In this document: positions 22,409 to 51,205 of the stretch, in pieces
Position numbering within the stretch: the stretch's first letter is position 1
Layout of the letters: each line of letters starts with the position of its first letter
Position numbers and translations under genes: made by a program
Origin: a virus
Lineage: Duplodnaviria; Heunggongvirae; Uroviricota; Caudoviricetes
Virus record (IMG/VR): IMGVR_UViG_3300030055_000004
Direction: 5' to 3' (one strand)
Length of the DNA: 64,000 nt
Notes under the pieces: generated by a model
What the model saw: the letters and a program-made list of their open reading frames with translations, nothing else
Database searches by the model: none
Told to the model about the DNA's origin: nothing

Positions 22409-24270
22409 TGAAATTCAATATACAAAAATTACAACAAGGGGGAGGTATGCCATTCGTGTCATACCAACCTTTTGACTATAATCCACAAACTCAGACTGCA
22501 CCTAAACAAAGTGCTCCAGCAAAAACTGAAGAAAAAAGTGGTACAGATTTACTTTCAAAAGAAGTAATAAATGAAATTATTAAAACTGGTATGCCTAATG
22601 AAGTTGAAACATTTTTAAAACAATTGAAACAAGTTGAAAATAGTGGGCCTTTTACATCTAGTTTTGATACTAATAAATTATATGATTTAGCAGCAAAAGG
22701 TAATCAAATAATTACTAATTCTAAATTAATGGGTGAAGCTACTACTAAAGCATATGAAAATGGAGGTTTAGATGAATTAGCAGTTACTTCTACTGGAGGA
22801 TTATATGTTAGAGATTCAGAAGGTTCTTTATCAACTGTTAGTATGGGGGATTTTGCTAAAAATAGAGATAAATACCAAGCTTTAAGTGTTAATGATTTAA
22901 GTCAAGCAAGACGGTATGATACTAAATTATCGTTTGATAAAACTATCATATCTACTGTACAAAATGCAATTGGTATTGATAAAGTTTCTGATCATATTGT
23001 AGAAGTACTTAAAAAATTAGGATCAGAAACTACTGAATCTAATAGGTATCAAAGTGGTAGTGATTATTATAAAAATGCTTTTCAAAAAGGAGTAACATCT
23101 TTAGGTGGGAAACAACCTACAGAATCACAAACAGAGGGTCTTAAACAATTAAGTACAATGTATAATAAAATGGGTAATGAAGGAATCCTAAATATTAAAA
23201 CTGAAAATGAAACTCAAAGAAATCATATAAAAGATGCTTCAGCTTATATTTTAGCAACTATGTCCCCTAATGCAGTTAATTTATTAAAAGCTAGGGCTAT
23301 TGTTAATGGTACAAGTGCTTCTCCAGAAAACCTTATTGCAGTTGCATTTGAATCCTTTACTAATGATAAACATACTTCTAATATAGGTTATGAAGCAGAT
23401 ATATCAAAATTAGGAACTGGAGTTAAAGGAACTGCAGAAAAAACTTATAATCAAACTCCAATGGAACAAATTATTAATGGGGATTTGAACACTACTACAA
23501 TGAGTTTAATAAATCCTGATAAATCTAATTATGGTATGATTTTAAAAGGATCTATGATTGGTAAATTACCAGATATAAATGGTAAACCATTACCAATGGC
23601 TCCTTTAGGTAGAGTTTTAGATAGTGGTTTAGGGGTAGCTGTTGATCAAAATAATATGTTTTTTGGAGATAAAGGAATTAAACCGTATGAAAAAGATCAA
23701 ATTATATATGGTGGAGGTGAAGCAATTAAAACTATGGTTCCAGTAGATGTAAATGGACATCCTAATTTAAAAGCATTAGAACAATTTGAATCTGCTGAAA
23801 AATCTATTGCTTCAAAAGGATTAACAACTCCAGAACAAAAAAATGCTGAATATGCTAAATATGGTTTACAAGGGATTCAATTAGGTACAGATGGTAAATT
23901 AACAACTATGTCTACTAAATATTTAAAACCTTTTATTGTAACTCATGGTTATAGTACAAATGGAGTAGCATCCGCATTAAATAATGATTATACACATACA
24001 GTAGATTCATCTGAACAAAAAGGAGTAACAACAATGTTGCAAGGAATTTATAATAAATATAAATTAACTTTTCCAGCAGCACCTACATTTACATCAAATA
24101 AAATAGTACAAGCACCAATATTTATGCCTATTTTACAAGGAGCACAAAATACAGTATCTGCTTATGAAGGACATGGAAGTGTTGTTCATGCAAATACATT
24201 ATTCGAAGATATACAACGACAACCAAGTTCTGCTACAGGTAGAACAGGTGCAGACATTTTACACCAATAA
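22408..24270 (+). CDS. Putative cargo protein (620 aa; no Trp, no Cys)
   Basis: TAATG-coupled ORF starting MKFNIQKLQQGGG. Confidence 0.8.
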   Translation: MKFNIQKLQQGGGMPFVSYQPFDYNPQTQTAPKQSAPAKTEEKSGTDLLSKEVINEIIKTGMPNEVETFLKQLKQVENSGPFTSSFDTNKLYDLAAKGNQIITNSKLMGEATTKAYENGGLDELAVTSTGGLYVRDSEGSLSTVSMGDFAKNRDKYQALSVNDLSQARRYDTKLSFDKTIISTVQNAIGIDKVSDHIVEVLKKLGSETTESNRYQSGSDYYKNAFQKGVTSLGGKQPTESQTEGLKQLSTMYNKMGNEGILNIKTENETQRNHIKDASAYILATMSPNAVNLLKARAIVNGTSASPENLIAVAFESFTNDKHTSNIGYEADISKLGTGVKGTAEKTYNQTPMEQIINGDLNTTTMSLINPDKSNYGMILKGSMIGKLPDINGKPLPMAPLGRVLDSGLGVAVDQNNMFFGDKGIKPYEKDQIIYGGGEAIKTMVPVDVNGHPNLKALEQFESAEKSIASKGLTTPEQKNAEYAKYGLQGIQLGTDGKLTTMSTKYLKPFIVTHGYSTNGVASALNNDYTHTVDSSEQKGVTTMLQGIYNKYKLTFPAAPTFTSNKIVQAPIFMPILQGAQNTVSAYEGHGSVVHANTLFEDIQRQPSSATGRTGADILHQ

Positions 24271-24271: not shown

Positions 24272-27200
24272 ATGAATGAAATACAAAAACCGAACGATAT
24301 GTTCGTTTCTACAGTTTTAAATCCACAAGCAAATTTATTAGAGTTATCCCAAGCTGGGGTAACTCCAGATAATACAGCTTTATTACCAATGGATGAATAT
24401 AAAGAGACAAGTTTTGCAAAGAAAACTTTTACAGATGATAAAGGTAATTTTAATAATGCCGCTTTTCAAAATGCTTATGTAACTGCTGCAAATAACTTTA
24501 AATCATTAACTGATACAAGTTATATACAAAATTTACAAAAAGATGCAGAATATGCACCTGATAGTAGATTTAAACCAGTGGGAGCTAAAGAACAAGATTT
24601 ATCAGTAGGTTTACAATTAATTAAAAATCCATATCATACACAACAGGGTATTACTTCTATGTATGGTACTACAGAATCTAATTGAAGTGTTAGAGAACTT
24701 GCTCAAAATAGTAAAATATTTGATACAGAAACTGGTAAATTTACAGATAAATCAGCAAATGATTTAGGATTATTAGGAAGTATATTTAATAAAGATACTT
24801 TAGTATATGCACAGTATGATGAAGATGGTAAACATATGGATACTGATACAGGCAGACAAGTATCTCATAAAAAAGGTGAATATAAAATTGATCCTACAGG
24901 TAATTTTTACACAGAAACTTTAGGTAATAGAGAAATCTATGGAAAAGAAACTGTTAATTCATTAGATTTATTAACTAAAGATGGTGAATTTTTAAATAGT
25001 GTAGATTTTTTTGACTCTGATGGTAAAAATAAAAGTGCTTGGGGAACTACATTTAAAATTGCTGCAAAAATTGCTCCATTTTTAATATCTTATAAAGGTT
25101 TTAATAATATATATGGTGGTCTTTCTGCTGCTGTAGGATTAGCATCTGCTATGCCAGTATTATATAAATCAATTGAAGGTATTCTTACAGGTGAAGATGA
25201 TATTAATAAACAATCAGGAGCTTGGAATTTAGCTAATAAAACTGAAAGTTTTATGGGTAAATTTGGTACTAGCACTTCTGATGAAGGATCTCAAGGTATG
25301 TTTAATTATGAACAAATTGGGGGAATGGTATCAAGTGTATTTGGTCAAATTTATGAACAAAGAGCTATGGCAGGTTTATCTAATTTATTTAAATCAACAA
25401 GTTTAAGTAAAACAGAAGCAGAAGAAATGGCAAGATTTCAAGGAGCATTTGTTGGTAAATTACAATCATTAGAAGCAGAGGGCAAAACTGTAGATGCTGT
25501 TAAATTATATAAAGATGCTGTAAATTTAAATCCAGCAATGAAAGCAATGGGGGAAAAACAATCTGAAATTGCTAAAGCATTATCTTTAGGATATATGGCA
25601 TTAACAACCTCAACTGATGTCTATTCTGATGCTATTAAAGGTGGGTATGATAGACGTACAGCAGGTACTGCATTTTGATTAGCTGCTGCTGGACAATATG
25701 GAATTATGATGAATAATAAAATGTCTACTTGGTTTTTAGATAAAACTGTTGGTTTTTCTGAAGAAACTAATAGATCTTTAGTTAAAAAAGCTTTAATGCC
25801 AGTAATGGATAAAATTGCTGAAGGAACTAATTTATTAGAATCTAATCCAATATTAGGTCAAAATGTACTTAAAAAAGCAATTACATCTGGTAAAAATGCT
25901 TTATATAATGTATTTAATGAAGCATCAAATGGTGGTTTAAGAGGATATTGGGAAGTATCTATGATTGAAGGTGTAGAAGAAGTAACTGAACAAATGGTTA
26001 TGGATGCTACAAAAGGAGCTATAGATGTTGCTAGTTCATTAGGATTAACTAAAAAACAAGGTTCATTTGGTGGGTGGGATACTGTATTCTCAAAAGCAGG
26101 ATTAGAAAATTATGTTTCTAACTTAGTTGGAGGTATGATTGGAGGACCTATGTTTAAAATGAATGAAAAATTAATTGAACCAATGTTTAAAGGTGGTATT
26201 GCACAACCTGAAGATGAATATTCAATGTATTCAATGATAGCTAATGGTAAAACTGATGAAGCACTTACTATGGCTGAAAATATGAGAGGGTATGTAGGTA
26301 ATAAATTTTTAGCAACTGGTACTACTACAATAGATGGTAAACAAATTTTTAATGCAGCAGGTGATGCTAAAACTCATGCAGATTTAATTGTAGATGGTAC
26401 AAAAGAATATATAAAAACTTTAGATAGTATTTTTAATCAAGAAGGATTAAAAGTAGATGATACATCTTTATTTAATAAGGCATTATTAAATCAATATATG
26501 ATTCCAGAATTAGAAAAATCTGGTGTTGATAAATTAATTATTAGTGATTTTAATAAAACAGCTGGTCAAATAGTACAACTTAGATCTGAACTTAAAGATT
26601 TAGAAAGTGCACCAGTTACTGCAGAAGGTGCTACTGGAATTGCATTAAAAAAAGCTGAATTAGATGAAAAAAGATTATCAATTCAAGAAATAACAAATGG
26701 TGATAAATCAGATGATTATTTAATGAAATCTTTATTGTATTTAATTCCAGATATGCATAAACCTTTTATTGCACTTAATAAAGAGCAATATACTCAAGCT
26801 AATTATGATAAAAGTTATTTTGATTTACCTGACAGTGGTGTTGGAGTTACAAAAAAATCTGTAACAACTAATTTTGATGAATATATTAAAAATCCAGATA
26901 TTGTTTCTAATTTAGATACTATTTTAGGAGCATATAAAAATGCACAAGGTATATTTTCAAATACAATTAAAGAATATGCAGAAAGTAAATATAAAGATGT
27001 TCGCTCTGCTGCATTTAAAAATTTATATAATTTAACTGGTCAATTTGATTTAGTAGAAAATTTTAAAGCAAATAATGGGGCATTTAGAGAAATTTCTAAA
27101 TCTGCTGCTAATAATAACTTGAAAAACTTCTCAGTAAATGATATGTTTGATTATGATATTAATGAATATTTAGGTAAAGAAGGATTAATTGATAATAGTA

Positions 27201-30200
27201 TAGTAATTGATCCTGCAAATGATCCTATAGCAGAAAAATATAAAACTTTTGTACAACAAATACCAATGCAAGAGATGAATGTGAAATTTTTACAAGATAC
27301 TGTTAAAGATTTCTTTGCAAATATTATTAGTGAAGGTAATAATAAAGAATATTTATTAGAAACTACTCCTGAAAATATTGCTACTGCTTCACCAGAAGCT
27401 ATTGCATTTAGAACTAATTTTAATGCTTTACAAGATAAATATTATAAACCATTACAAAATTACAATAAACCATTACAAAAATTTGATTTTCAATTAAAAA
27501 TGTTAGTGAATGCTTTATCTGAAAGTAAAGTTAGTACAATTGATAATGAAGTTTTAATAGGTATTAATAAAAAATTAACAGCATCTTTTAATGAAAGTAA
27601 AAAATCATTAAATAATGAATTGAAATCTCCAACTATACAAACTAATATTGGAGATATGAGTTTAGATAATATTTTAGGTATTATATCTGAAGCTACTATT
27701 CCAGATCCTACTTCTACTGATTTTCAATTTAATGATAGTAGTGCAATAAATGTAAGATTACAAGAAAAAATTGATGCAGGACAAACTCATTCAGAAGCTG
27801 TGGCAGAAGTTAAAGGTGAACTTAAACAATTTATAAAAAATAAATTTAAAAGTGAAATAAATCCACTAAGTGAAAATGATTACTTATTAGGTGAATTAAC
27901 TAATAGTCAAAAAACTATTGATAACTATATAGATGATCAATTTAAATTAAATGATACTTTTGATAAGTTTGATAAATATGTTTCAAAGAAAACTGCTATT
28001 GCTAATCCATTATATGATTTTCTAAGAAAATTACAATTAAAATTAGATAAAGGAACTTCAAAAACTGTATTTAATATATTAGAGGATGAAGATAATTTGT
28101 TATCTATGTCTATTATAGATGATTATTTAAAATCAGATTTTACTTTAGGACAAATTAATAGTGCAATAACTACTATTGAAATGGCTAAATCTATATTAAC
28201 TGGTATGTATACTAAACAAGGAGCATTAATAGATGGTAAAGAAACTATGTATGGTTTTAATTATGCTATGCAAAATTATCTTAAAAAATATAAAGAATCT
28301 ACAGGTTTAGACAATTATGCAATAATAAAATCAGAAGATGCTTCTTTAATTAATACAGATTTAAATAATTTATTATCTAAATTAGTATTCTTAAAAGATT
28401 TATCTAATTCTAATACTGAATCTAAAGCAAAAGAACACATACTTTCTAGAGAAAATATGGATAAATTATTTTTAGATTTATTAGATAAGCAAGATTTTCA
28501 ATACAAAGGTAAACCATTAATTGCAGATAAAGATACTATTTTAAATCTTCCGATAAGTCAAGAAGCTAAATTACTTAAATGTCAAGATAGTATTTTTGAA
28601 AATTTCAAAGACACTCTTCCAGAAAATTATGCTGCTGGATTAGAAGAAATTTTTAAAGATTTTGATTTTAATGCAGTATTTAATGGGGATAGTAATGGAA
28701 TTTCTTCTACTACACAAGTTCTATCACAATATGATATATTCATAAATATGTTAACAAATCTTTCTTTACGTTCTACAGAAGTACAAGAAAGAAATAAACG
28801 TATTATAGAATCTCCTGAATTTAATTATGCTCCTTTTTATGGACAAGAATATGCAGCAAAAATAGCTTTAGCATTAGTTAAAAATCCTAAATTATTTTAT
28901 GAAGCTCAAGAATTAATTTATAGAAAAGTTAATGGAGAACAATCACAACTTAAACCTGGTGCATTTAATCTTATGTCAATTACAGGTGTTGCTGGATCAG
29001 GTAAAACTTCAGTAGTAGGGCAATTTATTTTAAAATACATGTTACAAGATGATGCAAAATCAAACATTATTATAAGTTCACCAACTGCAACGCAAACTAA
29101 AGGATTACAAAATTCTTTATTATCTACTTTTTCAGAGGATGAAGTTAAAAAATTAAATCAAACAACTAAAACAACAGAAGAAATCTTTAATAAATTTTTA
29201 CAATTTAATTATGCAGATTTTAAAAATGAGATTAAAACAGTATCATTTGGTAATAAGAAAACTTATAAATTCTTTGATGAAGTTGAAATAAATGGCAATA
29301 CTACATTAGTATTAAAAAATAATCAAATCAATTATAAATATCTAAATAAATTAGATACTCCAAAAGCTATTTTCTTAGATGAAGGTACTCATTATAATAG
29401 TTTAGAATTAGCATTATTTGCTAATATTTCAAAGAAATTTGGATTTCCATTTATTATATTTGGAGATAAAACTCAAAATGGAGCAATGATTAATAATAAT
29501 TCTTTTAATTTAAATAGAATATTTACTTTAAATTCTCCTGTTCTTACATCATCTATACGAGCATCTAATATTCATCAACATGATAATAATTTTAAACTTG
29601 CATTAGCTAGTAGTAGTGTTATTAGAGCAGTAGCAATGAGTCCTGGTTTAGATCCTGAATTAGATCAAGAAAATGCTGTTAAAAGATTAGATGAATTAGA
29701 TATTACTTTAAATTATTTTCAAGATAAAAATGTATTTAATGGTGGGAAAATTGTAAGTTCTATTACTGATGAAGATTTAACAACTATAAAAGAAGCTTTA
29801 GATAGAACTTTAATTGATAATCCAACTGCAAAAGTAGGAATAATTACTGATAAAGGAGAAATAGATGATAATTTAGTTATTCAATTAGCAAAAGTTGGTA
29901 TTACTCCTGATCATTATATATTCTATTCATCGGATAATAATGGTACTAATCCAATGCAAGGTAACCAAGAAGAATTTATGATTATTGATAAGGATTTAAC
30001 TATAAATTCTAATAATAGGATTGAAACTTTCTTTCAAGATATGAATACATTAGGTAGTAGAGCTTTTCAAGGTTCTTTAATTCTTGATAAAAATGGTATA
30101 TTAAATCAATTTAATATTAAAAATAAAAAAGAAGATTATACTTCAGAAAGAAGATTAGGAGAAAAGATTATAAATGATGTTAAAGAATTAAGAAAAAAAG

Positions 30201-32893
30201 ATTTTGTAGATATGGGAATCAAAGACTATATCCCAACAACTACTATTACTCCAGTTGTAAAAAATCCTATAACTACTCAACAACCTATTGTAGATAAAAA
30301 ATTACAAGATAAATTAGATGAATTAAAAAATCCATTAGTTATAGTGAATAATTTTGGTAAAAAAGAAACTGCAGAGACAGATACAGATGGAATTACTAAA
30401 AATCTAACGCCAGAAGAACGAAAGAATAATTTAATGATTCATGCTTTTTATAATCATTTGTCTGTACCAGTTGATGAACATCAACATTTATTAGAACAAA
30501 CTGGAAATGAAAACTTACAATTACTTAGTCATAACAATGGAGATTTATTTGATTCAAAATTAGTAAATACTTTTATAGAATTTAAAAATATAGTATCTTT
30601 GTATTACGATAATGAAGAAATTTTAACAAAATTGTTAATTGGAGATTCAATAAAAGAATCTAAATTTACAGACTTAATGTCTAAGTTAGGTATTACAGAT
30701 GTAAATTTATTAATATCTTCAATGAAATCTAATATAAAAGTTGTTGGAAATAGATATATAAATAATATAGATGATCCTAGATTTAAAGCTGGATTTGATG
30801 CTACTAAAACTTTAACAGGGGATGGAAATATTGGAGATGATATATTTCTTAGATTAGTCTTAAAATTAAATTTAGAGAATAATAAAGTAGGTTATATAAC
30901 AATAGGTGCATTACCAACATTAGATACTTTAACAAAATCTTTTACATCTAAAACTGGTATAGTAGACCAAGAAACAATAGATTTATTTAGTAGTATGAAT
31001 AAAAAAGTTAATACTACATTATTAAATAATGATACTGACCAATCTACAACTAATAAAAATCCTATTATAGAATTAGATTTTAATGGTGACATAGTTAGAA
31101 AATTTACATCTGGTTTAAGATTTATTGAATCATCACAAAATATATCAGCCGATAGTTTACAAATACTTCACCCTGATATTAAAATTGAGACACAAATTAC
31201 AAATGGAATTGAAACTATTCCAATATTTGGAGGTTTAAATGTATATAAAAATGATTCTTATAATGATCAAACTATAGAACAAACTATATTAAAATATGGT
31301 TATAATCGCGATCCAAAATATAGAATTGATGCAGATACATTAGCAAGTTATAGGTCTAGACCTTATGTAATTGTATCTTTTAGTGGAGAAAATGGAAATG
31401 AATTTAAAAAACTTATTGTATTAACTCCAAAAACTAGAGGATATGAAGATTTAACATCTGAATTTAAAGAAATAAAAGATAATTTATATGATAAGGAAGA
31501 AAAATTTGAAAATATTAATAATAATTATTCTTTTAATGTAAGTAAATTATTTAGCAAATATACTGGATTTGAGATGTTTTATAATATAAAATCTAGTAAT
31601 ATAAATAATATGCAATCAATTGTTGAATTATTTAAATCTCAAATTAATAAATTTTATGCTGGTAATACAACTAAAATTAATAAAATTAATGGTGAGTTAG
31701 ATTTATTAAATAAATTTAATTCTCCTGCAGAATTTACTAAATATATAAAAGATAATGTATTAGCTTTTCCAGAATTTAATGTTGGCCAAATAATAATGAC
31801 TACTTTAGATGCAATGGATAAATCTTCTGATAAAGAAATTTTTAAAGATACAATAGAAACTATTAAAAATTCTTTAACATCTAAAAATGGTCAAGATTTA
31901 GTTTATGCTTATAATGGAAGACCTTATTCATTAGGTATAACAGAAGATATGTTAGGTATTAGTATTGATGATTTAAAATATTTTGAAATGAATATTATAC
32001 CTGAAATGCCTAGATATGTAGTAGATTTTAGTAATATTAATATAAATCAAAAAGTATTAAATATTCCAGTAAATCCTATTGTTAATAATAATTCTGGAAC
32101 TGATAATTACATAACAAAAGCAGAAATTAGTACTCAAGGAGATTTAGATATTTATGTTACAGGAGAATCTGGACAAAAATTTAGAATAAATGTTAATCCT
32201 ACTGGAGTTTATGATATACATCTAATCAATAAATTTGATGATAGTTATCATTTATCAATAGAACCGTATACAGATACACAGATTCATAATCTTGTAACTA
32301 AATATGTATCAACTGATACACAAAGTATGATTGATAAATGGATTCAATATAGTAATGATAATTCAACATTAGAACAATTCCGTATATTTAAAAATGAGGA
32401 ATTAGAACCTTATATATCTAAATTAAATAAAAATCCAGAAATACTTCTACCTGAAATTTTACCACCAAATGTAGATGAAAAAACTAATTATATAAATAAT
32501 TTATCTAATAAAGCTATTGAAAATAATTTAACTAATAATTTAATTCCTGCATTAACTTCAAGATTTAATATTGCAGATATTAATAATTATTACAAAAGTA
32601 TTTATTATGGAGATTTCTATGAAAAATTAATGAATTATAAAACTGATTTATCTAATATATTAAGTAAATTAAATGTAGTTGATGGTAATTTCCAACCTAC
32701 TGGTGAAACACCTATAGAAGAAGTTATTAAAAATGTTAAAGACTCATTTAGTACTTTAATTGATCCACTTTTAAAAGGTATACAAAATTATCAAGAAGTT
32801 ATGGGTGAAGAAGTAAAAGATGCTAGACTTAGAAAAGTAAAAATGGATTTAATTAATGAATTAACATTAGATCTAAAATTAAAAGATTGTTAA
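24272..32893 (+). CDS. Giant virion protein with SF1 (RecD/Dda-like) helicase domain (2873 aa), TGA=Trp at 24683 and 25676
   Basis: ATG 24272 in frame through to TAA 32891-32893; GVAGSGKT, FLDEG, FGDKTQ, QG and SRA motifs; ends ...LKDC. Confidence 0.82.
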
Positions 32894-32912
32894 AAATAAA
32901 AATAATAAATAA

Positions 32913-35900
32913 ATGGCAAATTGCACAGTATCAAAAAAAGGATATACAATAGATTTTTTAAAAGAATCTGTAGTAGATGTGATAGCAAAAGGGGGAGATT
33001 TATATTCTCCCCTTTTAGCACTTAAAACAGACCTTGAAGAAGAGTTAAATACAAATGAATATTTGGATATTGATGATTATCTTCAATCAATAAAATCAGC
33101 AGTAAAAGATTATAATCAAACTGCTGAAAAAAAGTTATACTTTGATAAAAATATATTTAATATTAAATTAGAGAATTTAACTAAAACTAAAGCATCAACA
33201 TCTAAAGAATTAACTATTAAAGATAATGTTGCAAATTTATTTACTAACAAATCTAATGCATATAATTATTTTATTAATGAATTTAATAATAATATGATTG
33301 AAGCTTCTTTAATGAATAAAAAAGATAGTCAAATTGTTGATACTGAGGATAAATTAAATGCTTATATAGTAGATTTAAAAAATAAATTATATAATACATT
33401 ACAAACTTATTTAGGTTTAGAATCTAAACCATTATATGATGAAGTTGGTAATTTAACAGAAGAAATTGTAAATTATAATGATATATTATCTAAATTTGCA
33501 GTAGATAATTTTTCTCCATTTTTTACTGAAGATTTACAAGATACAATGATAAGACATCATTTAGATGCTTATAATGCAGCTGTAACTTTGAATAATTTTG
33601 ATGCTTTAGTAAGTAATACATTTTCTAGTATTGTAAAAATTGATTATAGATATAAAGGATTTTTAGAAAATGGGAATGGAACAAAATATAGTTTTGATGA
33701 AAAATCTATTGAAACACAATATTGGAAAAAAGATAATCATTCTACAAAAGCTGCTAGTTTAGTTAGTTCAAACTTAATTAAGGTTTTTACTAACAATATT
33801 CCATTATATGATAAATTAGGTAAAAGAATTCATGGACAATACTTTGGAATGAGTAGATTATACAATTTTGCAGCTTTAATTAAACAATTAGAATTTGGTA
33901 ATACAAATAAATCTTTTTCTTCTAATCCTACAAAATTATTAGAACATTATTTAAAAAATTATAATAATTATACAGCATTAAAAGAGAATGCAGATATTGC
34001 ATATTCTTTACAAAATTATATTTATGGTAATCATGGTGTAGCTGATATCTTTTTAGATAGTAATTATAAACTATCTGGAAATACTACTAATATTATGAAT
34101 ATTGAGGCATTATTTGCTTTCGAAATAAATAAAGTATTTTCTCCTAGTTATGGTGTGTATAATAATAATACTTTAGAAATTAAGGATTTTAGTAATTATC
34201 AAAAAGTAACTAGTGTTGTAAAAGATTTAATTGGGTCTACAATTATATTAAAAGTACCTGATCCAATTAGTCCAGATAAATATAAACTAGCATTTGATAA
34301 TTTATATAATGCTGATCATAAAGTGTATATAAATGGAACTAGTAAAGCAGTTACTAATTTAGATATAAATGATTTAAGAACTTCTGAATTTAAAAAATAT
34401 TTTTTAAAATTAACAGGTATACAATTAACTAATAGTTTATATAAAGCTATTAGTAAACAAAAACAATCAGGTGCTGAATGGGAATCAGTAGCAGTTATTA
34501 AAAAAGTTATAGAATTAACTAATTCTATAGCAAAAGATACTCAAACTGAAATGAATGGAGATAATAATCCTACAGTTATTGCTGATATTAATAATAGATT
34601 TAGTGAAGATACTAATTATAATAGTTTAGCAAATGCATATGTAGATACATTAATGTATATACCAATTCAAAGCATTCGTAACAGTGAAGGTAGTGAGATA
34701 CCTTTATATAGACAAACAAGTTTTACTGCAAATGATAAAAATACTATTGAAAATAATGTTCATCCTGATGAAAATTTCTTTGCAGCTAATCCAACTTTAT
34801 TAAAAAATACTATTATTAGATTAGAAGGAACTTCAGAAGAATCTGATACTGGTAAAAATTCAGCTAAATTTACAGCAGAAGAAGGCATTTTTTCAGCATT
34901 CTTTGCTGATTATTTAAGTAGTTATTTAAATAATAAAAGTGTTGTAGTTCAACCTTTTCCTTATTCAGATAAATCAACTGATTCTTTAAAACAAGTTTCT
35001 ATAAATACAGATGTTGCCATTAATGGTCAATTAGTTACAAATATTATTGTTGATGCTTATTCTAAATTAGGTGTGAAAATTGATAATACTAATTATAAAA
35101 TTTCTAAATTTGATGATACTATTAAAAATATTAATACTTTTTTATCTGGCAAAAGTATGCAGGAATTAAAAGCATTAGGTTTAAAAGATGGCTTACATTT
35201 TAAATTTGAAGGAAAAACAGCTAAATTAAATACTCAAATTATAACAAATGTAAAAACTAAATTAGAAAATTTATCTATTAAAGAATTAGAACATTTACAT
35301 TATTATTATAATAATACTTATTTTACTGAATTAAATAAAAGAATGATGAATACTTGGACTACTTTAATAGGTAAACTTCCAGGCGGGACTAAAGCATTAA
35401 ATACTAAATTAGCTAAATTAGAATATTCTGATATTTATAAATTATTATTAAAAAATCCAGGGATTGAATTAACTGAAGGATTACATTATGTAGTTTATAA
35501 TGATAAAGGTAAAAAGAAAATTCAATTAAATAATTCTTTTTTAGATTATGTAAAAAATAATAGCACTAAAGAAGCATTTGATAAATGGAATTTAGATAAT
35601 AAAGTAAAATCTTTATTAGATTTAAATAAACTAACTGATATTAATAATATATTTAATCCATATAATTTTAATCAAGATTTAGCAATAATTAGAGGAACAT
35701 TAACTACTCCAGAGGAAAAAGTTAATTTTGATCGTACAACTTCTACTAGTAATTTTGATACATTACTTGAATTTTATCCGATAGCTATGAATTTTAGTGG
35801 ACAATGGGTAGGAATTGATTTTCAATCAGAACAATTTGATATAGCAATGAAAAAATTGAAATCTGGTAGTTCTGATGTAATAATTAATCCTCTTATAGAT

Positions 35901-38900
35901 AAATTTATTCAATTTACTAATTTTACTAAAGATCAATATTCTTCTTTAACTACAAAACATGAATATCTATATGTTGCAAAAGTTAATATGAATGAGAATA
36001 TAGATATTGAAAATTCTATGAGATATAAAGTATTATCTAAACGTATGGTTGGTCATCCAGGTACTATACAACCTTATATGCAAGGATTAATTAATGGTAT
36101 TCCTAGTAAATATAATGTTTCAATTGTAGAAGATGCAGCATTTCCAGTATTTAATTATTCTGGAGATTTTAAAAAACAAGATGGATATGATGGATCTGCT
36201 TGGATGAATCCATTTATTGCAGTATTAGAAAATAATTCATTACCTGGGTCAGGTATTAAAGGTACTAAAAAACCATTAGGATTACATATTGGAGATGGAT
36301 TTTCATCTTTATTTAAATTTGCACAATTTCCTATAACAAATAGTTTAATTAGAAATTCTACAGAGTCAGAAAATTCATTCTATGAAATTATGAGAAAAAT
36401 GAATAATCAACCTTTAGATTCTTCTTTAAATTTTACACAAAATTTAAATAAAGAATTATTTCAAATTGATGATGCTATACATAAGTATAATCCTGAAGGT
36501 CTTTTTGTAAAAAAGAATGGAGGTTATGAAAAGATTACTAATATTAATCTTAATAGAGATATTAATAATATAATTGATACTACAAATAAATATGTAGTTG
36601 TTAGTCAAAAAACTGATGAATTTGGAGTTCCTTATGGAAATATAATTACAAAACCTATAAATATAAATTCAGTATTTGATTTATGGAATACATTAGGTGG
36701 TCAATATTCTATGGAATTAAAAGATGGTAAATTAGAATGGGGAGATCTTTCTATTAATGCTGTTTCAGAATATATGAATAATATAGGTAGTCAATCTAAA
36801 AATACTTTTAATCAGCCTTTAAAAGATTCTGTAGTTGCTATGCTTGCTAATAAATCTGCAGTTAAAATGGGAGCTACTAATGTAAATATTGTTGATACTT
36901 GGAAAAGTCCAGAAAATTTATTATCATTTAAAGTAAATACAACTAATTTTGGTATTCAAATGGATGCTAATCATGAAGCAGATGATTCTGAAATTACTGA
37001 AATGACACAAATTATTAGTATGCTTTCTGCTTTAGGATATACTTCTACTTATGCTGAAACTGCTTATACTGCATTAGCAGATATTATGGAAGAAAGTTTA
37101 AAAGAAGTTGATAAAGTATTAGCTGATAAAACTGGTAAAGAAGTTTATAAGTATTTATCTAAATTTGTTATAAGTGAATTTTCTAGAGCAAATAAAATTA
37201 GTACTGCACAAAATGTAATTGAAATTTTATCAAAAAATCAAGCAATTGGTATTCCATTTAGTGATAGTAGTATATTTAACTTATTTACTACTAATTTATT
37301 ATCTAAATTAAATAAAGATACTCTACGTCGTAAATTATCAGGTCTAGCAGGTATTTTAAATCCTTCTCATGGTGTTATTCAATTATTTGAAGACTCTAAT
37401 GGACGTAAAATGTTATGGAGTGACATGTTAAATGATATCTATAAAGGATTAGAAAATCCCAATGAAAGTGACCCATTATATGGTAGATTAAGAACTATAC
37501 TTGCAACAGGAGAAATAAATAATACTAATGTTAATGCAGATCTTGTAAAAGAATATATAGCTACTAAATTTAAAAATATTCAAATTGATGCTGATAAAGT
37601 AAAACTATTTGATACTATATTAGTTAACGGTGAAGAAAAAATTTTATTAACACCAACTGATATACAAAATTTTACTGATACTATAAAACCAACTGATATA
37701 ATTCAAAAAGTACAAGGAAAAGCTAGAGATTTAAAACCTGCTGAATTAACTTGGGTAGATAATTTAGGGAAAACACAAAATATTTGGACAACAACTCCAC
37801 TTAGAATTGTAACTAATTTTGAACAATATAAAAATTCAGATGTATTAAAAGATTATTTAGAATTTGCTAAACCTATTTTAATATTAACAAATCCTAAAGA
37901 TGAAGTTCCTATTTATAAATCAGAAGGTACACAATTATTTGAAGATTTACAATCTACTAATAAAGATATTAAATCTAATGCAGATACAGTAACTCATGAA
38001 CTTCTTAATAATTGGACTCAAAAATTATTTAGTGCATTGAAGAATAATGTAATGTATAAAGATTTAGTTTTAAATAAAAAAATAGGTCGTTATGATTTTG
38101 GTACCTATTTTAAAGGAGATGATTTAGTACATAAAGTGGATACTAGTTATTATACTCAAGATAATTTTAATCCTATACAAAATTTTGTATTAAATAGAGC
38201 AGAGACTATTATTCCTAAAATTTATAAATCAACTTTAGATTTACATAATGATTCTTTACATGAAATATTATCTCAAGGAAAAGAATATTTTAAAGGAAAA
38301 CTTAATGCAAATTATGAATTTTCTGAAAGTACTGAAAATATAGATGCTATGTTTAGAACTACTTTAGGAAATATAGGAGTTATGGTTTCAAATAAAAAAA
38401 TAGATCCTTCTTTAAAAGAAAATATTATGTTAGAAGTTTATGAAGATTCTAATGATGTATTTAGAGTAGATGAATTTGGTGAAAAAATGTATAAAATGCC
38501 TAAAGATTCCTACATAATTAAAGAAGGTAAGGCAGATATATTAGTAGTGAATAATGTTAATCAAATAGCACAATTTGCAGGAAGTTTAAAGAACAAAACT
38601 AATAGTATTCAAATATTTGGTAATAATATAAAATCAAATGAAGATATGCAAACCCTATTAAAAGTAGGAGTTGATTATAATTCAGTAAAATATTACTCTA
38701 ATAAATATAGAGAATATGGTAATACATTAGAATCTAATATTGATAATAAAGATAGTTACAAAACTTCACAAACAAGTGCAAATATATTTTATTTAGATAA
38801 ACAAACTAATATTGATGTTATAGGTAATGCAATATATAATTCATTTCTTAAAACTCAAGAAATAATTGCAGGTCGTATTCCATCACAAGCATTACAATCT

Positions 38901-41561
38901 TATATGTCAATGCAAAATGTTGCTTTTACTGAAACAGGTTCAAGTGATGTATATGTATCATTATGGCAAATATATTTACAAGGGGCCGATTTTGATATTG
39001 ATAAAGTGTATATGATGGCTTATGCATTAGATGCAAATGGTATGTATGAAAATTGGTCTCCATTATTTGATTATTCAAGTAAAGAAGCTTTAGATTTATC
39101 TGAAAAACTTCCTATACCAACTGGTATTCCTATTAATTTTCAAATTATGTCTACTAAAGAAATTAAAGGATTAAATAGAACTGGAGTTGATTTAACTGAT
39201 ACAATTAAAACAGCAAATGGTAAATTAAATCATATAGAAACTTTGAATTTAATTAATGATTTACTTCCACGTATTAATAAAAATCCTGATGAATTCTTTT
39301 ATAGTAAAATAGCAGATGAAAGTGGATTAATGGATAAAATTAATCAACATAATACATATAGTAATCAAAAAGAAGGATTAAAAAATAATGTAGTAACAAT
39401 GGTTCATAATGTAAATATGGATTTAGAAAATCAAGTATCTGCATATACCTCTATTGATTCTGGAACAGCACCATGAACTGAACAAGTTAAAAAAGCTGAT
39501 ACAGGAGATATTTTATCTGCACATAGTGTAGTTTCATTATATAAACTTAAAGAAACAAATTCTGTGGGTAAAGATACAGTAGGTGTAATGGCTAATGGTT
39601 TAAAAACATTTTTTGCATTAACTCAATATTTTAATAAATACTATAAATCAACTGACAGTATTTCTCCAAATGATAATGCTTATTTTATAAAGAAATTTAA
39701 TATAGGTGGTGGAGATAAATATGTTAGTACAATTGGAGATATTAGAATTACTAGTGAACAAGCTGATATGATTAATAATTATATTAATAAAGTAGCTGAT
39801 ACTGATAATACTTATATGTATTTTAATAATAATGATATTTCAATTTCATTATCTGCATTAACTAGTTTAGCAGTAGATAATGCTAAAGAATTGGCATTGG
39901 CAAAACTTAATGCTGGATTAGAATTAGCAAGTATGCATATTTATTTAACTATATTAGGATTCACACCAAAAATGGTTGCAGATTATATGATGGGGCCTAA
40001 TGTAAGTAGATTAGTTGCTTCTCTTAAATACAATTTCTTTACAGATGAAAAAACATCAGTAGATGATTTAGTAACTAAAAGTGGAGATAGACAATTTATT
40101 CAAATTTATCAAGGGGCTAAAGAATTAAGAGCATTAAATACCTTTTTGGCTTTAAATCAAGGAGTAAAATCTAATATCTATGAAATTCATGGTTCTTTAG
40201 AATCTATGAATCAAATTATTTATACTAGAGAAAGTATTTTATATAAAGGCAATACTGGAAATATGCAAAATAATTTTGATACAACTGTAGATAAAATGGT
40301 AAAAGAAATTAGTGTTAATAAACCATACTTAACTAAAGAATATATTAAAAATACATTAATACAAGCTCATAAAGAGAATATAATAATGCAGAATTTTAAT
40401 TTAGATAAATATCTTAATGATCCTATGTATAGAAAAGTAATTGTAGATTATTATAATATATTAAAACATACTATTAATATCTTTGATAGTATAAATAATC
40501 TTCCTCATTTTTATCAAATGTTACAATCTTTAAATTCATCAGTAAATTTATTAAAAGTAACATCAGCTAGAGTAAGTTTTATTGAAGATACAGTTCCAGT
40601 AGTTTTAAAATATTATAAAGATACATTAAAAAAGAAAATCACTATTAACAATGATCCCTTTGCACCATTAATATATTCTAAAGATGGGGCAAAAGCAATG
40701 AGTACTTTATTTACTGATCATGTTATATATGAATGAATGAAGTCTCCTGATTTAGATTTTTTTAGTCTTAATTTAGAACAAATTGCAAACTTAACATCTA
40801 ATTCTAAAATTGAATATTTTAATGATAAAGGTAGATTTTCAAATGATAATGTAGAAACTACTGCTGGGAATGTAATTATAGATACTAAATCTTTAGATAA
40901 TTTAGCTACAATTAAAGTACTTATGGAGAAATATTTGATTCCTTATTTAAAAGAAAATGAATCTGATAATACATTTGTTAAATATTTAATTAAAGCTACT
41001 AATAAATATTCTAAAAGAGAATTCTATAAATTAAATATTAACATGAGTGCTTTAAATGATAGTATATCTGGACCATTATTTAATGAATTACTTAGTTCAT
41101 TTAATGAATTATCAGATAAAAATAGTGGTTTAACTGGAGAAAATGATACAAACTTAAATTGAGGTGACATATTTTTTGTTTATAATACTATTATAAATAA
41201 AAATGCAATTGGAAATGAAAGAATGAGTAGAATTTTTGATGATTATGTACAAAAACCAAATTCATTAGCTATTAAATTACCAATATTTTTTGCAGAATTT
41301 GATAATAAAACTAGAACTTTAGATATTAGTCCATATGATATAATGTATAGTTTATATAATAAACATGGAGTATTAGACCTTGTAAAAAAATCAGGGGAAA
41401 AAACAATACCAGAATCATTAGAAATATTAAATCAACATTATACTTTAAATGTGGATTTAATTCCTTCAAATAATGAATCTAAATTAAAAAATCAATTATT
41501 AACCAAAATTATGAATGCTATGAATAATGGGCATTTCACAATAGATTTAAACTGTAACTAA
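32913..41561 (+). CDS. Virion RNA polymerase, crAss two-barrel type (2882 aa), TGA=Trp at 39474, 40734, 41160
   Basis: RIPSQ and GADFDID catalytic motif (38982-39002); four track ORFs in one frame. Confidence 0.92.
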
Positions 41562-42409
41562 TGGCTTGTGACTATATAATAACAACTAAAGATGGAGGTA
41601 CTTTTAAAGTACCTTCACCTTTTGATACGAAATCTGATACATTATTTTCTAGTATTTTATCTAATTTAGATACTAAAACTTTAGGGCAATTAATGTCTAC
41701 TATTCAAACTTCTATAAATAAAAAGATACCTAATAAACCAGTAATATCTGAAGAAATAATAAAACCAACAGATAATAATGAACTATTAGATACAATATTA
41801 ACAGAAATGACTTCTAAATTTGGTATACAATTTGTACAATTTAATAAAGATAATTATGCAGATATACAACAATTATCAGTAGAAGATTTAAATAAAGTTA
41901 AAGCATTTGCAAAAGATGGTGTAATTTACTTTAATAAAACAGAAGGAACTATTGAAGAACCTTTACATGAATTTATGCATTTGATTTTAAATACATTAAA
42001 AGTTAGAAATCCAACTTTATTTGAAAATATTGTAAAAAATATGTATAAAGTAGAAGGATATCAACAAATTGCAGATTTATATCCAAATTTAACAAGATTA
42101 GATTTAGGTGAGGAAGCATTTGTAAGATTATTTTCTAGTAAAGCAACAGAATTAATGCAAAGTACTGATTTAATGACAGCTGTTAAACAATCATTAAACG
42201 ATATATTACAACCAACTAAAGATACTTCTAATATATCTACTGAAGATTTACTTGATTTATCTATAACAGACTATATAAATCAATTTGGAAGTGAATTAAT
42301 ACAAGGTAAACAAGGTTTATATAATAAAACAGATAGTAATTTAGGAACTCAAATCTTAAATATAAAACAAAATTTAATGGAATCTAAAGAATTAGGAGAA
42401 AAATGTTAA
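41561..42409 (+). CDS. Zincin-like (HExxH) protein of the RNAP cargo cluster (282 aa)
   Basis: KAFAKDGVIY...PLHEFMH...GEEAF motifs; TAATG overlaps at both ends. Confidence 0.75.
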   Translation: MACDYIITTKDGGTFKVPSPFDTKSDTLFSSILSNLDTKTLGQLMSTIQTSINKKIPNKPVISEEIIKPTDNNELLDTILTEMTSKFGIQFVQFNKDNYADIQQLSVEDLNKVKAFAKDGVIYFNKTEGTIEEPLHEFMHLILNTLKVRNPTLFENIVKNMYKVEGYQQIADLYPNLTRLDLGEEAFVRLFSSKATELMQSTDLMTAVKQSLNDILQPTKDTSNISTEDLLDLSITDYINQFGSELIQGKQGLYNKTDSNLGTQILNIKQNLMESKELGEKC

Positions 42410-45400
42410 TGGAGGGATGTAAATATATATTAAAAAGTAAAGGAATGGAATTTGATTCTGAATTAGAATTAAATGATTATATTAAAAATAATATTGATGA
42501 TTTTGACCATACTGGTAATATTGTTTATAGTTTGGCAGATAAAAAAGAAATTAATGTTTCTAAAATAAAAGAATTAATTAAAACTTACAGCCAACGTGTA
42601 AGTGATGGTACTTCTTTATCTGTTAATGATTTTCTTGTACAAGAACATCAAATTGGAGAAAATACTGAAAGATTAGTTCCAGAATATATTGAGGAAAATA
42701 GAATTAAAAATACTATTACTCAAATTATGAAAAATAATCCTAGTTATACTGAAGCATTTGCTAGAGCAGAAATATTAAATACTATTGCTCAAGAAAATAA
42801 GATGGTAAATGTAGGTACATGAATGCATAAACTTTTACAAAAAGGGTGAAAAAGTACTTCTAGCTCAGATTTTATATCTGAGTTAGCAGGTATGGCTCAA
42901 TTTAAAGATGTATTAGGTACAACAGATGAAACCGCACAACGAAAAGTTAGTGATGCTATTATAGAAGTTATAAGATTAATTTCATCAACACATCCAAATG
43001 CAACATCATTTCCTAATCTTCAAATTGTAACTGAAGATATGCTAGGTAGAAAAGTTAATGGAAAAATTGATTTACTTTTAATTGGCGAAGATGGAAAAGC
43101 TCATATTTATGATTTAAAAATATCTACTAAAGCATTTAATGATTGGGATTCTGCTAAAAAATTAAATACTAATTATCAATTGGGAGCATTAAGACAAATG
43201 TTATCTGCAAATGGAGTTAATATTCAAGATGCAACATTAAATGTAATTCCTATTACTATACCATTTGGTAATATAAATAGAATGCAAACTGATATAAAAA
43301 TTGAATTATTAAATCCTAAAACTCAATTAAATAATAAATTAAATTATTTTCAAGGAGATGTAAGTTTAAAACTTAAAAAATACTTACCATCTACTATATC
43401 TAATGCAGATGTTGAAAATGTTCATTTAGATAATACTTTAATTGATCAATTAGGTGTTTTATTTCCTAAATTTAATTTTGAATCTCAACAAATTAAAGTT
43501 AATTCAGAAGAATTATTTAATAACGCATCTAAAACTAAAAATTCAAATGGTGAATTTCAATTCTATAATAAATTACAAGGTAAACGTACTACAGCAAAAA
43601 ATGAAACTGAATTAAAAGAAAAAATTGATCAGTATGTTATAGATTTAGATCAACAAAAACATACAGTTATTGAGGGTTTATATGAACAATTGGATGGTTT
43701 TATAAAAACTGGACAAAAGCCTGAAAATTTATTTGGTAAAAATACTAATGCAGTTTTAAATGAAGCTATTTCATATAATTTTGATAAATACATGGATGGT
43801 ACATGGAATCTTATTAAAATAGATGCATTAATGTCTGCTGGTATTTTAGGTTTTCAAAGTGAAAATGGCATGCTAGAATTCATGGTTATTTCAACTAATA
43901 GAAAAAATATATCTTATAAATTACCAGAAGGTAATTCTTTATTAGGTAAATTTCTTAATAATGAAAAAGCAAGAGAATTCTTTCCAGAAGTATTAGAAGC
44001 AACTACTAGTAATATTGAATTAATGAAAGTATTAACTGTACTAAATTCAATACCTGAAATCTTTAATGGATATACATTAGGAGATATAAAATTTCTAAAT
44101 TATCTTGAAGGTAAAGCTGATTCTAAAGATTTAAATATATTAATTAGAAATTTTAATGCATTAGCTGAAAAAGGAGGTATTGAAAGTAATTTTAAAAATA
44201 GTAAAATTAAACCTGTTGAAACATTAGATTATATATATAATAATTTAAATTCAATTCTTAAAGTAAGTACAAATGCTGCATTGACAGATATTTTTAATGC
44301 TGTTGAGAGAGAAGATTTAATTACATTAAAACTTGAAACTTTACAAGAATTAAGACAAAAGATTTTAGATATGCCTAATCAAGCTTATTTAAAAAATAAA
44401 TCTCCTAATGAAATGCTTAATTTTAATACACAAGAAGAATATGCATTATATTTAGTTAGTTTAGGAATTGCCTATTATTCTGGAATTACTAATAATGGAG
44501 ATTATATTATCCCTCAATTAGGAATAAGTGGTGCTAATACTGTAGATGTTTTAAAGTCACCATTTACTTATAATGAAACTTCAAGAGATAAACAAGGTAA
44601 TAAAGTTGTAGGGTTTCTTGGAGGTTTAACATTTGCAACTGCAAGTACACTACCTTCTAAAGATTTACATAGTATTGTAAATTTAGTAAGTATTGGTAAT
44701 CAAAGAATTAGAGGTGAATATGAAAAAGTATTAACTGAAATTATACCACATACTAAAAAATATTATAAAGATTCAGGATATTCTGAAGTTTATCAACATA
44801 TAATTGGTAACACATATCCATTACATGATAATTTTTATAAAAGAATGTCAGATGATACTTTAGATCCAGCAATGATGTTTAAAAATCCATATGATGAACA
44901 TGAATCTTTATTAGTGCCTCAAAGAGACTATTTAATGAGAATGTTATGGGAAATAAATAAAAGACGTTTAGGATTATCTATAGAAGAAAAACAAACCGAT
45001 TATAAAAAAGCAGATAAATTAGAGAAAGTTATAAAAGCTGGTGATAAATATTTCGAAGTACCATTAATGAGGGGTACAGATGCTTCTAAATTGCATAATA
45101 TAACACTTAAAAATACTCTTGAATCTATAAAAAATAAAGTTGATGAAGTTAGAGATTATATAGATCCTAGAGAATTAACTGAAGAACAACGTATTAATGT
45201 AGTTAAACAAAAAAATAATTATCAAAATATGTACAATCAATTTAGAATGTCTGAAAATTCAAGATCTAAAATGATTGCAAATAAAGGAGTTAAATATTTT
45301 GAGACTAATCTTGATAGAATAACATTAGAATATGTATATGCTGATATAAAAGAAAATATAATGAATAATGTATTAAGTAAAATGAATTCAGCAATTTATT

Positions 45401-46962
45401 TACTTAAATTTTATGCTAAACAATCTGGGGATGATATATCTTCAACTCTTCAATATTTTCAAGATTACATACAATCAAATATATATAATGAACCTATAAT
45501 TTCATCAGAATTACAAGATGTAGTTAAATGAGTAGAAGCTGCAAAAGGTTTTACAAGTAAATTAATTATGCCTTTTAGACCTGCAATGTTAGTAAAAGAA
45601 TTAAGTATGGGAACAATTGTTAATGTTTCAAGAGCTTTTACACAAATTTATGGAGAAAATTCATTTAATATTAAACATTTAGCAGAAGCATATAAAGTTA
45701 TGATAGGATCTAATAAACAATTTTCAAGAGATTTTAATAAAGTAGATGCTGTTAATAATGCCTATGGTGTAGTAAATTTAGATATGAATGTACTTGTTAA
45801 TAAAACAAGAACAGATAGAGTTGGGGCATTAAATGCATTTAATGAATGGATGTATTTTACTGCAGGACATGGTGATTATGTAAATAGAATGACTTTATTT
45901 ATTGCACAAATGATACATGATGGTGTATGAGATGCTCATACTGTAAATGAAGATGGGCATTTAATTTATGATTTTGAAAAGGATACTAGATTTGCAGAAT
46001 ATAATGCTCATAAAAACTCTAAAAATTATACTTCAAAAGCATTTTTAGATCAAAAATCTCTCTATAAAGTAATTCTACAACAATTTAATACAGAAGGTTA
46101 TACTAAAGAAGATGGTTCCTTGTATACAGAAGGAGATGCATTACCACAAGCATATACAGTTAAAGATAAAGAAAGTTTAAAATCTTTTGCTGATTTAGCT
46201 TATGGTTTTTATGATCATGAACGTAAATCTATGTTTAATAAAACTGCAACAGGTATTGTATTTATGCAATTTATGACATTCTGGACTGCTAAAAAAGCCT
46301 TATGGTTTACTAAACCTGGAAGTACAGAAAATAGTCAAGGTATGTGAAAAACTAAAGAAGTTATAGATCCTACTGATGGTATAAAGAAAACAGTATTTAA
46401 ACGTGAATTTAAAGATGAAAATGGTATTATAGAGCATGTAGAAGAAACATTTGAGAATGATGGTAAAATGGAACCAGTAAAATATTGGGAAGGTAATCCA
46501 CATGTTGGATTATTTTATGCATTAACTCATACTTTTAGAGATTTAAGTAGAGGTAATTTTAAAGAAGCATTTGCAGATACTAAACGTAATAATAGATCAA
46601 AACAAGCTTTACATGATATACTTGCTGTAATGTTTTATGCATTTATTGCAAGATTAATGTTCGGAGCAGCTAGAGAAGCTATGGGAATGGATACAACAGT
46701 TGATCCATTAAAACCAACTAAAAATGGTGGAGATTTAACTATAGTACAAAATTCATTATCATTACTTGAAAAATCCCAATTAAAAGCCTTTGGTGAATTT
46801 AATCCAGTATCAAATATTTTTGGTGGATTTAGTTGGGAACCAGCATTTGCTACTAAAGTTACAAATGTAGTTACTGGAGCTCAAAATGTAATTTTTGGTG
46901 ATGGAGATCTTCTTAACTATGCTAAAAAGAATGTTACAATGTTAGAAAATTTCAATATTTAA
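42409..46962 (+). CDS. Giant virion protein with N-terminal PD-(D/E)xK nuclease domain (1517 aa), TGA=Trp at 42820, 42847, 45529, 45928, 46345
   Basis: GT-W-MH, GKIDLLL, IYDLKIS, YQL motifs; five track ORFs in one frame; start at 42409 preferred for the TAATG overlap (42403 possible). Confidence 0.8.
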
Positions 46963-47723: not shown

Positions 47724-47745
47724 ATTTTTAGATTTATTTAATTTG

Positions 47746-47753
47746 TAAAGGTA
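47746..47753 (-). promoter_or_regulatory. Possible -7 box (TACCTTTA) for the lysozyme gene
   Basis: One mismatch to TAnnTTTG, located between a terminator and ATG 47723. Confidence 0.35.
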
Positions 47754-47790
47754 CAAAATAAAACCTATAAAAAATACTAAAATATAAATA

Positions 47791-47832
47791 AAAAAAAATA
47801 GCCTAACCACATCATCACGACGGGGTTAGGCT
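47791..47832 (-). terminator. Intrinsic terminator ending the ligase operon
   Basis: AGCCTAACC/GGTTAGGCT stem followed on the - strand by A and a long T run. Confidence 0.8.
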
Positions 47833-47883
47833 TCACTACTTTATAAACAAAAAAGTATTTTTTACGTGTACTACACGTTATAT

Positions 47884-49758: not shown

Positions 49759-49764
49759 AATTTA

Positions 49765-49950
49765 TTATTCTATTACTGTCCAACAAGAATCAATGTTTTC
49801 CCACATCCAAGCTTCATATTCACCTTGAATTATTTGATCTGGATCTTTATCACAATCATAATCATCTGGTATAGATATAATTTTAATATGTTCTCTTTCT
49901 GAACCTTGACATCCTGTTGCTACATAAAAATTTACTTTTATATTTTTCAT
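49765..49950 (-). CDS. Small hypothetical phage protein (61 aa)
   Basis: ATG 49950, FYVATGCQGSE; ends TAA. Confidence 0.65.
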   Translation of the reverse strand: MKNIKVNFYVATGCQGSEREHIKIISIPDDYDCDKDPDQIIQGEYEAWMWENIDSCWTVIE

Positions 49951-50950: not shown

Positions 50951-50960
50951 TTATTTTTTA

Positions 50961-51203: not shown

Positions 51204-51205
51204 TT

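Follow-up and report, generated by a model that had tools for sequence, protein, structure and literature searches.

Facing terminal cysteines in four consecutive giant proteins of a putative crass-like phage suggest a head-to-tail cargo chain

We analyzed a 64,000-nucleotide (nt) stretch of the viral record IMGVR_UViG_3300030055_000004 (Caudoviricetes), called the window below, in which four consecutive open reading frames (ORFs) on the + strand encode the proteins A, R, Z and D (Table 1). The ORFs of the window were read with translation table 4, in which TGA is Trp; under table 11 the four giant ORFs break at in-frame TGA codons. Together the four proteins comprise 7554 amino acids (aa) and 855 kDa, and contain 7 Cys in all. 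Cys accounts for 1.09% of residues in a set of 200 ordinary ORFs of these phages, a frequency that would predict approximately 82 Cys here. At each of the three gene junctions a C-terminus faces an N-terminus, and six of the seven Cys lie no more than four residues from one of these facing ends; the two outer ends of the series have no Cys. With seven Cys placed at random, at least six would occupy positions among the 36 terminal residues that face the junctions with a probability of 8e-14. An earlier reading of the window, referred to here as the original prediction, had reported these ORFs and Cys positions, which we confirmed to the base, and the mass that it gave for the four proteins together (roughly 850 kDa) agrees with the computed total.

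The start of A at 24272 is backed by N-terminal homology to MT835470, and an alternative start at 24164 brings no extra Cys. A has no Cys at its N-terminus and contains two TGA codons read as Trp. An alternative ATG for D, at 42403, would place its Cys at residue 6. At the R-Z and Z-D junctions the stop and start codons overlap (TAATG), and a 19-nt spacer separates A from R. The region upstream of A had been described as encoding three Cys-free proteins of 454, 1322 and 620 aa; this is correct, and a fourth protein there, of 191 aa, also has none (Table 1). The 1415-aa tail protein that precedes these Cys-free proteins has nine Cys.

Table 1. Features of the cargo region and of the interrupted RNA polymerase (RNAP) genes. 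Coordinates are those of the window, except for the inserts, which are given in the genome named.
Feature	Coordinates (nt)	Strand	Product	Cysteines	Remark
Protein A	24272-32893	+	2873 aa, 323 kDa	C-terminal, residue 2873, last residue (TGT 32888-32890); internal, C1437 (28580-28582)	first link of the putative chain
R (virion-type RNAP)	32913-41561	+	2882 aa, 327 kDa	Cys 4 (TGC 32922-32924) and Cys 2881, penultimate residue (TGT 41553-41555) only	second link
Z (zincin-like)	41561-42409	+	282 aa, 32 kDa	Cys 3 (41567-41569) and Cys 282, last residue (42404-42406) only	third link
Protein D	42409-46962	+	1517 aa, 173 kDa	Cys 4 (42418-42420) only; C-terminus without Cys	last link
Upstream cargo-region genes	15165-24270	+		same avoidance of Cys	outside the chain
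Upstream protein	15165-16529	+	454 aa	zero	
Upstream protein	16519-17094	+	191 aa	zero	
Upstream protein	18440-22408	+	1322 aa	zero	
Upstream protein	22408-24270	+	620 aa	zero	
RNAP insert, MT835470.1 (L004)	about 19943-21005				
RNAP inserts, L012 and L014-L017					
RNAP insert, cr116_1 (L109)	15567-16406				

R contains the sequence GADFDIDK, in which DFDID (residues 2026-2030; nt 38988-39002) fits the DFDxD motif. The flanks of this motif gave a weak BLAST match to gp66, the virion RNAP of phi14:2, around its catalytic 1361-DFDID, and the catalytic motif also aligned with crAss001 gp50 and with DAC15, crAss002, cr1_1 and others. Z has an HExxH motif (HEFMH; nt 41966-41980) whose residues H136, E137 and H140 are invariant in five homologues. 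It matched no curated zincin profile and no Pfam or PHROG family, and its structural model was poor (predicted local distance difference test score (pLDDT) 56). Used alone as a query, Z found zero relatives in IMG/VR; against 5.8 billion proteins it found one distinct cluster of relatives, besides its own protein and a fragment of it. D carries a PD-(D/E)XK domain at residues 127-270 (PF12705; 26.8 bits, cut-off 22). For A there were only sub-threshold Pfam matches to SF1 helicases, with a weak helicase-like P-loop region at residues 1567-1766. Sequence searches of solved structures gave no direct match, and PHROG no match, for any of the four proteins.

With regard to the structural module conserved in Crassvirales (crass-type major capsid, portal, terminase and muzzle proteins), the phage gave only weak PHROG matches, one at 1e-6 to a major head protein and one at 8e-19 to a virion structural protein. 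The nearest database genomes are two unannotated human-gut records labeled 'Bacteriophage sp.', at approximately 27% identity, and a relative with 70% identity is present on short Logan contigs. Judged by sequence, the best reading is that the window comes from a very divergent crass-like phage. The position of the genes indicates that the four proteins are probably a block of cargo that is packed in the virion and injected. The RNAP cargo blocks of Crassvirales (gp67-gp66-gp65 of phi14:2; gp47-gp50-gp49 of crAss001) have the same module in the same order, namely a helicase-like giant protein, a DFDxD RNAP and a zincin plus nuclease protein, and they follow the same Cys rule described below. 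The module is packaged in the virions of phi14:2 and crAss001, and gp66 is a virion RNAP with a solved crystal structure. Unlike phi14:2 and crAss001, the window has a separate zincin protein and the TGA=Trp reading. Z is a stand-alone link, so the putative chain has four links. Outside the catalytic region, the identity between these proteins and those of the window is too low for BLAST.

Reading TGA as Trp is supported by the alignment of the in-frame TGA codons at A138, A469, D1174 and D1313 with Trp residues of a code-11 homologue. In-frame TGA codons are confined to the late genes on the + strand (window 1-47000), and all of the large - strand ORFs (47016-63532) are the same under tables 4 and 11. 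ARAGORN found no tRNA genes in the window.

We determined whether Cys is present at the corresponding termini in relatives of the window. The tally covered 22 lineages, from four Crassvirales families, three genetic codes (4, 11 and 15), a cyanophage and a Lightbulbvirus, that share only 20-30% identity. An IMG/VR scan with crAss001-type N-termini was kept out of the tally because its search pattern included the Cys itself. All 74 junction-facing termini had a Cys (at residues 3-6 of N-termini and at offsets 0-8 from C-termini). In contrast, there was no Cys at the N-terminus of the first protein (0/19) or the C-terminus of the last (0/22). The difference between junction-facing and outer termini is significant (Fisher p = 4e-32), with the qualification that this value overstates independence because the lineages are related. 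In ordinary ORFs of these phages, the background frequency of a terminal Cys is 8.5% (N-terminal) and 12% (C-terminal). When a chain is defined by a Cys within approximately 10 residues of each facing terminus and none at the outer ends, the window has the Cys at 6/6 facing termini and at 0/2 outer ones.

The rule holds in close and distant relatives. In the 70%-identical relative, one protein ends in KCN, the next starts with MNC and ends in ETC, and the one after that starts with MKKC. In MT835470 (code 11), the single Cys of A is five residues from the end, R starts with MAC and ends in RINC, an 804-aa Z starts with MSC and ends in ENC, and the sole Cys of D is that of its initial MAC. Three further IMG/VR lineages obey the rule. 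One of them (L024) has no separate Z gene between RNAP and D, and has one Cys in 2920 visible residues. By motif search, A, R and Z plus D correspond in the canonical crassviruses to gp47/g067, gp50/g066 and gp49/g065, respectively. The cleanest case is phi14:2, where g067 has a single Cys, as its last residue, g065 has C3 alone, and C3 and C2179 are the two Cys of g066. In crAss001, the single Cys of gp47 is its third residue from the end and that of gp49 is Cys 5; gp50 has three, namely Cys 5, an internal one, and one that precedes the last residue by 8 positions. The rule is also kept in DAC15, IAS virus, cr116_1, cr108_1, cr1_1, cr118_1, cr50_1, cr109_1, cr127_1, cr3_1, cr11_1 and crAss002, the last after the start of gp33 was moved to an in-frame ATG that gives MSC. 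Outside Crassvirales, it is kept without a DFDxD RNAP in the cyanophage Lbo-JY46 and the Cellulophaga phage phi17:2.

Could chance, misplaced gene boundaries, a misassigned genetic code, or a signal in the DNA or for translation at the junctions have produced the pattern as an artefact? The starts are inferred, and annotation errors do occur among the boundaries, for example at the start of crAss002 gp33 and in the intron-split RNAP genes. However, mending the wrong boundaries restores the rule rather than breaking it, chance is excluded by the probability calculated for the window and by the tally (74/74 versus 0/41), and the Trp reading of TGA is backed by alignment. In addition, gp50 and gp49 of crAss001 share a strand, the gene for gp47 is on the other one, and the partners are approximately 11 kb apart. 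This excludes translational coupling or a DNA motif as the cause, and the rule therefore acts at the level of protein. We regard an artefact of any of these kinds as having almost negligible probability.

Natural gene fissions and fusions indicate which termini belong together. In MT835492, in which TAG is Gln, A is split into A1 and A2 and a Cys pair is found at the new joint (A1 ends in EACKVIA and A2 starts with MQSNC), giving a five-link chain. Z and D are split, with a Cys pair, in the clade of the window, and are fused in canonical crassviruses; in IAS gp057 and cr1_1 gp077 the nuclease domain is found 570-790 aa into the protein. Fused A-R proteins (cr1_1, cr118_1, cr50_1 and cr108_1) have no Cys within approximately 100 aa of the mapped joint. 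Fused R-ZD proteins (crAss002, cr127_1, cr3_1, cr11_1, P0046 and P0062) keep the N-terminal Cys and have none at the C-terminus. The fusions thus fix the pairing as the C-terminus of A with the N-terminus of R, the only pair left when R and ZD are fused, and the C-terminus of R with the N-terminus of ZD, the only pair left when A and R are fused. The proposal that terminal Cys pairs are conserved at split junctions and absent from fused joints and free ends is therefore borne out. Two other origins of the terminal Cys were considered. Intramolecular closure of R and of Z, N-terminus to C-terminus, is disfavoured, as the fused A-R and R-ZD proteins keep one predicted Cys each. A relic of a polyprotein cleavage site was rejected, as the fused joints carry no Cys.

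The same data bear on the possibility that each terminal Cys binds some other partner, such as a capsid, portal or tail protein, a host periplasmic thiol-disulfide enzyme, or a second copy of the same protein. The tail and portal vertex of crAss001 use many inter-subunit disulfides, and a 674-aa protein of Lbo-JY46 has a lone N-terminal Cys with no evident partner. Binding to other partners does not explain the strict parity, with Cys lacking from the N-terminus of every first protein (0/19) and the C-terminus of every last one (0/22), nor the loss of both Cys upon fusion and the gain of both upon fission. We consider this explanation unlikely.

The Lbo-JY46 protein is an observation in its own right. 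It is encoded upstream of the chain of this Leptolyngbya phage (L112; 2626-4650), and its single Cys is residue 5 (MKKKC). There is no evident adjacent partner with a C-terminal Cys, and the head-to-tail rule leaves this Cys unexplained.

We extended the analysis of the RNAP with an exhaustive HMMER search using the catalytic part of crAss001 gp50. The search gave 150 representatives with no more than 50% mutual identity, of which 123 were full-length. An N-terminal Cys was present at positions 3-8 in 113/123 (92%), with one more at positions 9-15 and two at positions 16-22. The last 10 residues contained a Cys in 109/123 (89%); most of the other 14 had a Cys 10-13 residues from the end, and two Cys were found at offsets 20-29. 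Many of these RNAPs contain 10-30 internal Cys and keep the terminal ones, so the terminal Cys are not merely what depletion left behind. In an alignment of 43 R N-termini, the Cys was the only invariant column. Residues L, I or V follow the N-terminal Cys, and I, L, M or F precede the C-terminal one; near the C-terminal Cys, D is found at -7 and G, D or N at -4. Relatives of gp49 had an N-terminal Cys in 118/120 and a C-terminal one in 0/120, and relatives of gp47 had 0/120 and 120/120, respectively; these sets contained only close homologues (77-98% identical), and are consistent with the rule while adding little to it.

The residues around the terminal Cys are relevant to the possibility that a metal ion such as zinc holds the facing termini together, perhaps bridging two copies per junction as in a zinc hook. 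A metal would account for the same pairing and parity and would be workable in a reducing cytoplasm at assembly, and the residues that shortly precede the C-terminal Cys are often acidic or amide ones, at the -7 and -4 positions noted above. However, there is one Cys per terminus, with no conserved His or second Cys nearby. Furthermore, the distance from the Cys to the end of the protein varies (N-terminal residues 3-8; C-terminal offsets 0-13), so the free amino and carboxyl groups cannot be fixed metal ligands. We consider a metal link quite unlikely.

Docking of the facing termini was modeled using the C-terminus of a crAss001-like gp47 (200 aa) and the N-terminus of gp50 (250 aa), with an alignment that we made ourselves. 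The complex prediction gave weak support, with a score of 0.39 compared to 0.01 for the best of three controls. The runs agreed in at least 16% of contacts, and the pLDDT of the partner was at least 73. In a benchmark of 80 solved complexes and 110 mismatched pairs, which is approximate here because our own alignment was used, 58 and 2, respectively, reached the mark; those that reached it at scores of 0.60 or less comprised only 7 of the 80 solved complexes but both of the mismatches that passed.

Such docking could also be non-covalent, with the Cys serving as a redox or activation switch that, for example, keeps the RNAP inactive until it reaches the cytoplasm. Recombinant phi14:2 gp66 crystallised in a self-inhibited form, and its authors propose activation after translocation; both terminal Cys are flanked by hydrophobic residues, and the docking prediction, at its weak level, would suit a switch. 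Against this, links that involve no polymerase obey the same rule (A1-A2, Z-D, and the chains of Lbo-JY46 and phi17:2, which lack an RNAP), and a switch would not require Cys at the very ends. We consider a switch very unlikely.

The sequence data strongly support the view that consecutive proteins are functionally paired, C-terminus to N-terminus. Beyond this pairing, we infer the chemistry of the bond (disulfide or metal), a covalent 855-kDa chain in virions, ordered threading and release by reduction. That the terminal Cys pairs link the cargo proteins into one chain, most likely by disulfide, is in our judgment an even call. In such a chain, A would be followed by the RNAP, then the zincin protein and then D, with each protein bonded in the virion, through its C-terminal Cys, to the N-terminal Cys of its successor. 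The product would be one unbranched chain of approximately 855 kDa, equivalent in behavior to a polyprotein. A bond near the termini would leave the chain linear and allow partly unfolded passage through the narrow tail channel, and Cys elsewhere would create loops or branches. Cys would thus be kept at the termini and purged elsewhere because no cross-link other than a terminus-to-terminus bond keeps the chain linear. The reducing cytoplasm of the host would then open the links and free the enzymes. The linked-chain interpretation of the original prediction fares well in its core, the functional pairing of termini, and less well in its notion of gene order: with crAss001 gp47 on the opposite strand, the order belongs to the proteins.

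Published work lends plausibility to a linked chain. The crAss001 structure paper places gp47, gp49 and gp50 among the packaged cargo, states that they need partial unfolding to get through constrictions of less than 50 Å, and reports inter-subunit disulfides in the virions (PMC10172136).

Several points weigh against a disulfide-linked chain, in addition to the relatedness of the lineages behind the Fisher test. The accessible text of the same paper, in which reduced and non-reduced virions were compared, reports no giant disulfide-linked species (PMC10172136). The docking prediction for gp47 and gp50, at its weak level of support, is the sole evidence that points to a covalent or metal link in virions. 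The cytoplasm in which virions assemble is reducing, and many hosts are strict anaerobes, so that a disulfide would form only in the finished capsid or after lysis and the termini must first dock non-covalently. Approximately 8% of the RNAPs in the census have no N-terminal Cys, possibly through miscalled starts, and the positions of N-terminal Cys hinge on the calling of start codons. Finally, the AlphaFold models of Z and of the N-terminus of D are of low confidence (pLDDT 55.7 and 57.5, respectively); in both, the Cys is directly followed by a short hairpin and, beyond it, a helix, an arrangement to which we give no weight.

A broader reading extends this mechanism to other phages. Crass-like phages and some neighbouring ones would make a reversible, post-translational 'polyprotein' of 0.6-0.9 MDa, held together by terminal disulfides, ejected in a fixed order and reduced by the host, with joints at which gene fusion (a peptide bond) and gene fission (a Cys pair) freely replace each other in evolution. 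We hold this reading tentatively, as falling a little short of an even balance. The fused 'polyprotein' forms of other crass-like phages likewise keep the cargo in one chain; they differ in having a peptide bond instead of a Cys pair, and their joints have no Cys. The phi14:2 authors propose cleavage by the zincin domain.

Full-text literature searches found no description of the terminal-Cys pattern, as the original prediction had supposed, and the accessible parts of the crAss001 structure paper and the phi14:2 RNAP preprint make no mention of Cys in these proteins. Some known systems are similar in part. The giant virion RNAP and ejection proteins of N4-like phages (Schitoviridae; gp50/gp71, gp72 and gp73) strongly avoid Cys, which has been explained by their passage through the channel and periplasm (PMC11445570). 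Those proteins have been purged of Cys entirely, with the RNAP as a single chain, whereas the window keeps exactly one Cys at each facing terminus. In two-chain bacterial toxins, an interchain disulfide tethers a partly unfolded enzyme in a narrow channel and is reduced in the target cytosol (PMC6899712). The toxins are a mechanistic analogy only: the proteins are unrelated, there is no virion, and the disulfide is within one cleaved precursor rather than in a head-to-tail series of separately translated proteins. The disulfides of the crAss001 tail and portal vertex indicate that crassvirus particles do bond different proteins to each other (PMC10172136). They differ in being static structural bonds, not bonds between cargo proteins that leave the particle.

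How podovirus-like phages pass megadaltons of protein through a narrow tail in order, including the RNAP for the first transcripts, is an open question, and it concerns the most abundant phages of the human gut. The rule predicts which termini meet, and is testable in cultured crAss001, DAC15 and phi14:2. It also helps to fix gene starts, to spot intron-split genes and to delimit the set of ejected cargo in genomes of uncultured phages, among them genomes that recode stop codons.

Two features of the window proteins were noted separately. The N-termini of R (32913-32960), Z (41561-41620) and D (42409-42460) are alike, each having a Cys, a short hydrophobic strand, a K/G-rich turn and a second strand, and this shared pattern could be a docking module. 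The one internal Cys of A, near the middle of the protein, is approximately 25-30 alignment columns from the A1-A2 joint of MT835492. It may be a relic of a former joint of that type, which is only suggestive, or it may be due to chance (roughly 2%).

In some relatives, an insert with a Cys-rich, homing-endonuclease-like ORF of 215-238 aa splits the RNAP gene at a point exactly within the catalytic D[FY]DID motif (Table 1). The endonucleases of the MT835470-like contigs and of cr116_1 are 48% identical, and in the sister contigs L007-L011 the RNAP gene is uninterrupted. The false termini made by the insert have no conserved Cys, and the annotated ends are not real termini. The insert looks like a mobile intron aimed at active-site codons.

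Three gene annotations in relatives merit comment. In crAss002 gp33 (L027, NC_055828.1; 9270-9366), an in-frame ATG at L027:9366 gives the MSC typical of the family, and the annotated start is probably 32 codons too early. In IAS virus (L108; 13522-13532), the RNAP is annotated as two overlapping coding sequences, gp055 and gp056, and ambiguous bases occur close to the C-terminus of each; the split is probably a sequencing or frameshift artefact and not real. In cr108_1 (L114; 17123-17412), the fused A-R protein is annotated as two coding sequences separated by a 290-nt non-coding gap, the second with a non-ATG start. The gap contains no endonuclease ORF and the flanking 'termini' have no Cys; it may be a small intron.

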